Shown here piece after piece: positions 2,263 through 2,576 of a stretch of DNA of 17,432 nucleotides. Under the pieces are notes generated by a model. It had not been told where the DNA came from, did not search any database, and saw nothing but the letters and a program-made list of their open reading frames with translations. The translations under genes were made by a program, and so were the position numbers. Source of the stretch: a virus (lineage: Duplodnaviria; Heunggongvirae; Uroviricota; Caudoviricetes); the IMG/VR virus record IMGVR_UViG_3300011888_000045, positions 1-17,432 of that record; one strand, written 5' to 3'. Within the stretch, counting starts at the first letter, position 1. Each line of letters opens with the position of its first letter.

Positions 2263-2316
2263 ATGTCGCAAAATCAAGAAATTAGTAAGAAAGAACAATA
2301 CAACCTGAACAAGTAA
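2263..2316 (+). pseudogene. ttcC: 5' remnant of ttcA (tRNA 2-thiocytidine synthase), ttcC-like; marks the prophage attachment junction
   Basis: Translates MSQNQEISKKEQYNLNK then stop. My recollection of the TtcA N-terminus is MQENQQITKKEQYNLNKLQKRL, giving 12 of 17 identities before similarity ends. In K-12 the Rac prophage is integrated in ttcA and leaves the ttcC fragment next to uspF. Confidence 0.55.
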
Positions 2317-2410
2317 GGGCAAAAATCACAACTCTCTGACTCATAAGTATTTTACTTATTTTTCAATGTGTTAAATATCATCAGCGACAACAATAAGCTA
2401 CGATAACCCA

Positions 2411-2465
2411 CTCTTTTTTTGCCCCTTTTTTGCCCCTTTTGCAGCGCTTTGCCCCATTTTTGCCA
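2411..2465 (+). repeat. Helically phased T-tract/GCCCC direct repeats (about 5 units, 10-11 bp period)
   Basis: CTCTTTTTTTGCCCCTTTTTTGCCCCTTTTGCAGCGCTTTGCCCCATTTTTGCC; GCCCC at 2421, 2432 and 2451 with T-runs between. Confidence 0.5.
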
Positions 2466-2576
2466 TCAACAATTTTCCTCATCAAGTCATTTCAAAGCCT
2501 AATAGGTGCCCTACTTTTTTCCTCAGTACCACGTCGCCAGCAGGAAACAACCTAATCCCGGTTCGGATCTAAAATT

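Follow-up and report, generated by a model that had tools for sequence, protein, structure and literature searches.

The attachment site of phage lambda contains the Int arm-type sites P1/P2 and P'1-3, IHF H sites and Xis sites, and the b region lies beside attP. In Escherichia coli K-12 the Rac prophage is located between ttcA and ttcC', and its excision, which has been demonstrated experimentally only in K-12, changes four N-terminal residues of TtcA (Liu et al., PMC4632033). Both Rac att sites contain an IHF consensus; in vivo, an IHF peak was observed only at attL and none at ttcC/attR (Kasho et al., PMC8407004). The uspF side of Rac is annotated in MG1655, where the 'cryptic prophage Rac' feature borders directly on the pseudogene ttcC (b4638), after which come uspF and ompN. 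The deposited genome of Rac-SA53 (KU052037) carries annotated attB and attP features of 26 bp at record positions 51961-51986 and 722-747. Finally, a sit operon is carried and expressed as a moron by the lambdoid prophage Perceval of the AIEC strain LF82 (PMC9928086).

Here we analyse a stretch of viral DNA of 17,432 nt, positions 1-17,432 of the IMG/VR record IMGVR_UViG_3300011888_000045 (hereafter the window, to which coordinates refer unless another record is named). It is highly probable that a Rac-like lambdoid prophage was integrated into the 5' end of ttcA by the heterobivalent tyrosine integrase IntR, and that segment 2263-2466 of the window is its attR junction. The locus has the same ttcC, core and arm (to 2465, 99.3-99.5% identity) as K-12 Rac attR, and the same flanking genes micC-ompN-uspF. 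The two differ in their cargo, which is ynaM-ynaE-pinR (1.8 kb) in K-12 and sitABCD with a diguanylate cyclase (DGC) gene (5.5 kb) here. Moreover, K-12 Rac is a 23-kb remnant, whereas relatives of the window carry a full prophage of ~54 kb. Rac-SA53 has the same 26-bp core and the same int-ttcA and tail-fibre-uspF ends, but its arm is only ~90% identical, its cargo and tail-fibre modules are different, and no sit operon lies beside its attR.

Results

A remnant of ttcA borders uspF

The left part of the window is bacterial. The uspF gene (1653-2087, + strand) was assigned from the ORF list and from the RefSeq annotation of a 100%-identical stretch of ISHS7. It is followed by an intrinsic terminator-like hairpin, found in a terminator scan at 2095-2114 (+), and ends 175 bp upstream of a 17-codon ORF at 2263-2316 (+). 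This ORF reads ATG TCG CAA AAT CAA GAA ATT AGT AAG AAA GAA CAA TAC AAC CTG AAC AAG TAA and its translation is MSQNQEISKKEQYNLNK, followed by the stop. From 1500 to 2312 the window is 100% identical to the uspF-ttcA region of the prophage-free E. coli strain '10', in which the annotated ttcA start codon falls at window position 2263. Over 2263-2312 all of the 50 nt are identical to the 5' end of native ttcA, and the flanks are conserved as well. The resemblance of this segment to ttcA is therefore not due to chance. The match to ttcA extends to 2312 and breaks at the third base of codon 17; the stop codon TAA occupies 2314-2316. MG1655 carries the same 51 nt as ttcC, and the ORF of the window is identical to b4638. 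It thus represents ttcC, the first 17 codons of ttcA cut by integration and closed by a stop that is supplied by the phage.

An initial annotation of the window, made from its sequence, had recognized a 17-codon TtcA-like ORF beside uspF, with its stop where the similarity ends, and had likened the layout to that of Rac in K-12. Both observations hold, the first by the 50/50 identity to native ttcA, and the second by the b4638 annotation and by co-linearity with the Rac end of the K-12 strain C600 to 2465. A comparison of the junction region with K-12 ttcC and with ttcA of a Rac-free strain had also been suggested, and the expected nucleotide similarity was found, 2263-2312 being 100% identical.

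A weak sigma-70 promoter-like site at 2139-2167 (+), 5' of the native ttcA start and now in front of ttcC, is a tentative assignment. The promoter scan upstream of ttcC gave 9/12 consensus matches, no better than shuffled sequences. The Rfam scan of 2100-2700 matched no family. Elsewhere in the bacterial flank, the MicC sRNA was detected above the Rfam gathering score at 34-154 (- strand), upstream of ompN, which is the usual arrangement at this locus in E. coli. A match to 'Salmonella phage SPF_0923' proved to be an E. coli-like prophage region with the host flank nifJ-ompN-uspF, and says nothing on host range.

Four attachment sites share a 26-bp core

The attR of the window, the attB of strain '10' and the attL at the far prophage end of ISHS7 were aligned, and all fetched loci were then scanned. 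One block of 26 bp, AAGAAAGAACAATACAACCTGAACAA, located at 2287-2312 (+) in the window, is common to attB, attL, attR and attP. In attB this core lies between ATTAGT and ATTACAAAAACG, both of them bacterial. In attL it is preceded by ATTACA, from the phage, and followed by the bacterial ATTACAAAAACG. The attR of the window has the bacterial ATTAGT on its left and the phage sequence GTAAGGGC on its right, and in attP the core is bounded by ATTACA and GTAAGGGC, with phage DNA on both sides. The bases just outside the core are flank-specific (GT vs CA at 2285-2286, G vs A at 2313), and the crossover therefore took place within 2287-2312, which we mark as the site of strand exchange. The same block is the one annotated as attB and attP in KU052037. 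Furthermore, a predicted attP junction of 38 nt, composed of the left phage flank, the core and the right phage flank, is matched exactly in 6 IMG/VR viral contigs.

These data confirm the attR-type junction that had been proposed at about 2.3 kb, since the four-way comparison yields a single shared block. The crossover had been placed inside 2287-2320; these limits can now be tightened to 2287-2312, since G2313 already belongs to the phage-specific sequence. No inverted core-type Int sites flanking a 6-8 bp overlap were detected in or around 2287-2312, which weak symmetry could explain, and the only repeat visible in or around the core is a direct GAACAA...GAACAA repeat. Cleavage is presumed to occur somewhere within 2287-2312. 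The attL of the source genome would read AAATTACA, AAGAAAGAACAATACAACCTGAACAA and ATTACAAAAACG in this order, with intR and xisR upstream. This far end of the prophage (attL, intR and xisR) lies beyond the window, and we infer it from close relatives only.

If the 17-codon ORF were a chance or decay remnant, produced by a local duplication or deletion of ttcA, no site-specific recombination would have been involved. We found no supporting point for such an origin. One and the same base marks the breakpoint in 1838 genomes, and the reciprocal attL and attP junctions have the same 26-bp core. The four-way att comparison refutes a remnant of this kind, which we regard as extremely improbable, and recombination at the core is retained as the origin of ttcC.

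To establish the distribution of the junction, window 1500-3000 was compared by megablast with 5,426 complete E. coli genomes, and discrete break classes were obtained. Genomes with an intact ttcA next to uspF match over 1500-2312, those of the K-12 type match over 1500-2465, and B2 strains such as UTI89 stop near 2159. The whole query, from uspF across the junction to sitA, was matched in 495 of the 5426 genomes. A 300-nt probe centred on the junction was fully covered in ~1838 of them, or about a third. An exact 20-mer from the junction is also present in the species representatives of Shigella flexneri and Escherichia ruysiae. The interval between uspF and ttcA of UTI89 (L006, 4660-6915) contains a frameshifted metal-ABC permease gene, ~70% identical to the sitD of the window, then a DUF1627 fragment, an integrase fragment and ttcA. 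This strain, in which ttcC and attR are deleted from about window position 2160, carries a heavily decayed relative of the same prophage type.

Proposed course of integration

In the mechanism that we propose, the attP of the phage would present a diverged mimic of the first 8 codons of ttcA, followed by 26 bp identical to ttcA codons 9-17. Strand exchange in the core would then generate at attL a complete ttcA, the first 24 nt of which are phage-derived. The attL-side ttcA starts with MQENQQIT and the native gene with MSQNQEIS, and these four differing residues are the ones reported by Liu et al. for the excision of Rac in K-12 (PMC4632033). At attR the same exchange would leave the orphaned native promoter, the start codon and the 17 codons closed by the phage TAA, that is, ttcC. 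The site differs in this respect from that of lambda, as its 26-bp core is situated within a protein-coding gene, at the 5' end, and the phage re-completes this gene.

The phage arm and its candidate IntR sites

The segment 2313-2466 (+), to the right of the core, is a phage-derived att arm, int-distal and equivalent to the P arm of lambda. Co-linearity with K-12 Rac (through 2465 in C600) and an alignment of arms show that it is conserved among Rac-like prophages regardless of their cargo. When 8 attR and attP arms were aligned (88-100% identity), conservation was uneven from the core to ~2410, high over 2414-2466, and collapsed right after, just past the last of the repeats described below. 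The functional att arm therefore ends at ~2466, where the cargo starts to differ. The outer edge of the conserved arm coincides with the coordinate 2470 at which the initial annotation had ended the junction.

Five TTTGCCCC-like repeats, all in the same orientation, occupy 2418-2466 (+). They start at 2418, 2429, 2438, 2448 and 2459, with a spacing of 9-11 bp that is roughly 10-bp phased, and read in order TTTGCCCC, TTTGCCCC, TTTGCAGC, TTTGCCCC and TTTGCCAT. The exact motif TTTGCCCC has 3 copies in the whole 17.4-kb window, all within this array, and two more copies are found at attL, between the stop of intR and the start of ttcA. Relative to the core, the repeats are located at -67, -56, +106, +117, +126, +136 and +147. 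The attP of the diverged free Escherichia phage PHB10 (MK524177; 1620-1900 in L024), which also targets ttcA, similarly combines a mimic of the ttcA 5' end with a core, which has 2 mismatches. PHB10 differs in the 3' end of its integrase (~75% identical), in its cargo (SOS-response peptidase and cold-shock genes) and in its spacer DNA, which has diverged and is unrelated. Nevertheless, TTTGCCCC-type repeats are found there at the same distances from the core (-67, -56, +116/117, +135/136 and +147).

The IntR of ISHS7, which is the protein of a close relative, consists of a Pfam Arm-DNA-bind_2 domain (E=3.3e-26) followed by a catalytic Phage_integrase domain (E=6.4e-23), and XisR is a DUF1233 excisionase. 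As IntR possesses an N-terminal arm-binding domain, arm-type sites are needed. The clustering of the TTTGCCCC-like repeats, their conservation and the Arm domain of IntR point to them as probable arm-type sites of this integrase. Mapped IntR arm-type sites were not found in the open-access literature. Another element, GGGCAAAAA at 2317-2325, corresponds to an inverted arm motif 5 bp to the right of the core. It was rejected as a functional site and is probably coincidental, since diverged arms do not conserve it and its CAAAAA can be traced to leftover homology with ttcA codons 19-20.

The bacterial side has a perfect match to the IHF consensus, AATCAAGAAATTA (WATCAANNNNTTR), at 2272-2284 (+), immediately to the left of the core. 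Within the phage arm, a candidate IHF (H) site, TTTCAATGTGTTA, which has one mismatch and is preceded by an A/T tract, is located at 2361-2373 (+). Diverged arms retain its TTTTTCAA...TTA block, and the corresponding site of PHB10, at +47 relative to the core, matches the IHF consensus perfectly, vs the one-mismatch candidate at +49 here. We place a putative IHF bend site near 2361-2373.

The overall organization is reminiscent of the textbook lambda site: a heterobivalent integrase, an int-proximal arm of ~75 bp and an int-distal arm of ~154 bp, repeats ~10-11 bp apart, IHF-like consensus sites, and a cargo slot between the tail-fibre genes and attP. The candidate arm motif differs from that of lambda, being TTTGCCCC, with 3-5 adjacent int-distal copies and 2 int-proximal ones. 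The lambda comparison also raises another partner for the array at 2418-2466, since lambda Xis, in textbook accounts, binds tandem direct repeats in the int-distal P arm. The excisionase XisR, or some other architectural protein, might thus bind the array rather than IntR, and XisR does shift a 294-bp fragment containing the K-12 AttR (PMC4632033). However, the motif is also present twice in the int-proximal attL arm, at the conserved positions -67 and -56, where excisionases are usually not bound, and the dedicated arm-binding domain of IntR needs sites on both arms. We consider XisR an unlikely occupant of the array and keep IntR as its probable ligand. The 154 bp of 2313-2466, the int-distal arm of attP, would then contain an IHF-type bend site and five helically phased IntR sites. 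Together with XisR and the two matching sites of the attL arm, these arm sites would assemble the excisive complex.

A cargo slot with sitABCD and a diguanylate cyclase gene

Beyond the arm, the region between attP and tfaR is a slot for non-essential cargo, equivalent to the b region of lambda. In the window it starts with a sitABCD module (2467-6286, +), which is absent from K-12 Rac and from the attP contig L012 (IMGVR_UViG_2529293146_000014). According to the ISHS7 annotation, the module comprises sitA (2672-3586), sitB (from 3586, interrupted by an N-run), sitC (4399-5256) and sitD (5253-6110), all on the + strand. The sitB ORF (3586-4290) encodes 234 aa vs 275 aa in relatives; the apparent sitB frameshift is not real, as a 10-N scaffold gap replaces 21 nt. 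A strong terminator-like hairpin with a U-tract follows at 6288-6330 (+; dG -25.4 kcal/mol, z -5.1). The same hairpin (L002, ~4990-5040), identified by sequence comparison, immediately adjoins the arm in both K-12 Rac and L012, and comes after sitD here. The sit module was therefore inserted cleanly between the arm and this terminator.

The second cargo module (6331-8004, +; ISHS7 annotation) is a sensor-domain DGC gene, common to L012 and absent from K-12. A 1-nt deletion splits it into two ORFs, 6583-6741 and 6747-7913: at ~6731 the window has T6 vs T7 in ISHS7 and L012, and the 443-aa DGC gene is broken. The frameshift is either a sequencing error or genuine, and in the latter case possibly phase-variable. 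In K-12 the whole of 2466-8004 is replaced by ynaM-ynaE-pinR, and homology resumes in tfaR/stfR. This agrees with the earlier proposal that the K-12 pinR-ynaE segment is replaced here by different cargo, as 2466-8004 has no K-12 counterpart. Relative to L012, which joins window position 2472 to 6287, only the segment 2473-6286 is extra.

BLAST against the window and ISHS7 gave the order intR, attP, arm and sitABCD in four IMG/VR contigs (L007, L008, L009 and L010), and the order intR, attP, arm, DGC and tfaR, without sit, in L012. The sit operon and the DGC gene are therefore inside the phage genome and do not form a separate island, and the two cargo cassettes are independent of each other, since L012 has DGC without sit. 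An independent sit-DGC island inserted beside an existing Rac attR would move the prophage boundary away from 2312. The occurrence of sitABCD on ColV-type plasmids (~92% identity) and the clean insertion of the module relative to L012 and K-12 are in keeping with such an island. In contrast, the attP contigs have sitABCD and intR on one molecule, with the sit genes positioned between the att arm and the remaining phage DNA. Between sit and the bacterial flank lies the att arm (2313-2466), and neither a second att-like repeat nor an integrase was found flanking the module. A separate island is thus very improbable, and sitABCD and DGC are best regarded as cargo of the phage.

Upstream of sitA, the sequence GCTAATGATAATCATTTTC at 2577-2595 (17/19 consensus positions) is what we take to be a Fur-box-like element. 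A perfect AAACATAGC-N4-GCTATGTTT palindrome at 2618-2639, also upstream of sitA, is presumably of the MntR-box type. The terminator scan gave a match at 2618-2639, which is better read as this presumed MntR-box palindrome. The two elements, as far as the sequence goes, are consistent with Fe/Mn regulation of the sit cargo operon.

No convincing terminator was found between 2316 and 2672. With sit inserted between the arm and the terminator, the orphaned ttcA promoter and the ttcC leader would no longer be insulated from the cargo. The host ttcA promoter and RBS with the ttcC leader could in principle drive transcription across the arm and on into the sitABCD genes, whose strand is the same, although we think this quite doubtful. 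Were it true, a host housekeeping promoter would add a constitutive input to a virulence-associated Mn/Fe transporter controlled by Fur and MntR, and transcription across the att arm could also modulate excision.

The remainder of the prophage and its present state

The rest of the window carries Rac-like tail genes on the - strand (7987-17357; ISHS7 annotation): tfaR, stfR, lom-like, J, a tail assembly protein gene and a K-like gene. Identity to tfaR/stfR/lomR of K-12 is 95%. A match to the 'IS009' RNA family, above the Rfam gathering score, lies inside tfaR at 8030-8228 (- strand). The closest complete genomes are H10 (99.0% identity over window 1-17357) and ISHS7 (100% over 1500-3000). In both, the prophage continues with tail, head, terminase, lysis, trkG, replication, immunity, kilR, recET, ralR and xisR-intR genes, up to a complete ttcA and dbpA. 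The ISHS7 prophage measures ~54.3 kb, and in the closest genomes the attL end (xisR-intR-ttcA) is ~54 kb away from the junction.

The initial annotation had assigned everything to the right of the junction to the prophage. The intR-attP-sitABCD contigs and the H10 and ISHS7 genomes bear this out, apart from the discordant last ~75-79 nt. This terminal piece (from ~17354-17358 to 17432) matches, on the + strand, the interior of lambda-type exo genes of Stx/lambdoid phages, whereas in all close E. coli genomes the K-like C40 peptidase gene continues beyond 17357. Either a real rearrangement between prophages took place, or the contig end is chimeric. The window derives from a scaffolded draft, with two 10-N runs as scaffold gaps (4209-4218 and 6147-6156).

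The lambdoid exo interior at 17354-17432, in place of the K-like tail gene of close genomes, and the frameshifted DGC gene would also fit a junction of the same origin that has become a fossil. The source prophage would in that case have been rearranged or have decayed, leaving an attR without a functional partner, unable to recombine and with no present-day function. Decay of this kind is seen in relatives: K-12 Rac is itself a cryptic remnant, and UTI89, which lacks attR, keeps only fragments such as an int fragment and a permease pseudogene. On the other hand, misassembly may account for both the odd window end and the N-runs, and in the closest complete genomes the prophage is whole and its intR and xisR are intact. 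Forms of attP with the same sit cargo exist. In addition, the core and the arm are intact here and are identical to those of K-12 Rac, which is proficient for excision (PMC4632033). A fossil is possible but is not the reading we favour, and this copy may still be competent for excision through its attR.

Discussion

The junction itself is already known: annotations of it exist for K-12 and for a deposited phage genome, and at least three papers describe it (among them PMC4632033 and PMC8407004). The additions made here are modest. They consist of the arm boundary at ~2466, the positionally conserved TTTGCCCC repeats as candidate IntR sites, and the modular nature of the cargo slot. It would be a minor novelty, though a more likely one than read-through into sit, if the TTTGCCCC array proved to be the IntR arm-type sites, which are still unmapped. 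In the open-access literature we found no description of sit in a ttcA-integrated prophage, but only data on the distribution of sit and the Perceval moron of LF82. The likeness to Perceval lies in the sit operon being a prophage moron, and no identity with the prophage described here is claimed.

For annotation, the value of the junction is that the prophage boundary is fixed, as bacterial DNA ends within 2287-2312. It also explains why the N-termini of TtcA differ between lysogens and non-lysogens. Finally, the virulence-associated transporter sitABCD and the DGC are, in this locus, phage cargo that can be mobilised with a Rac-like phage.
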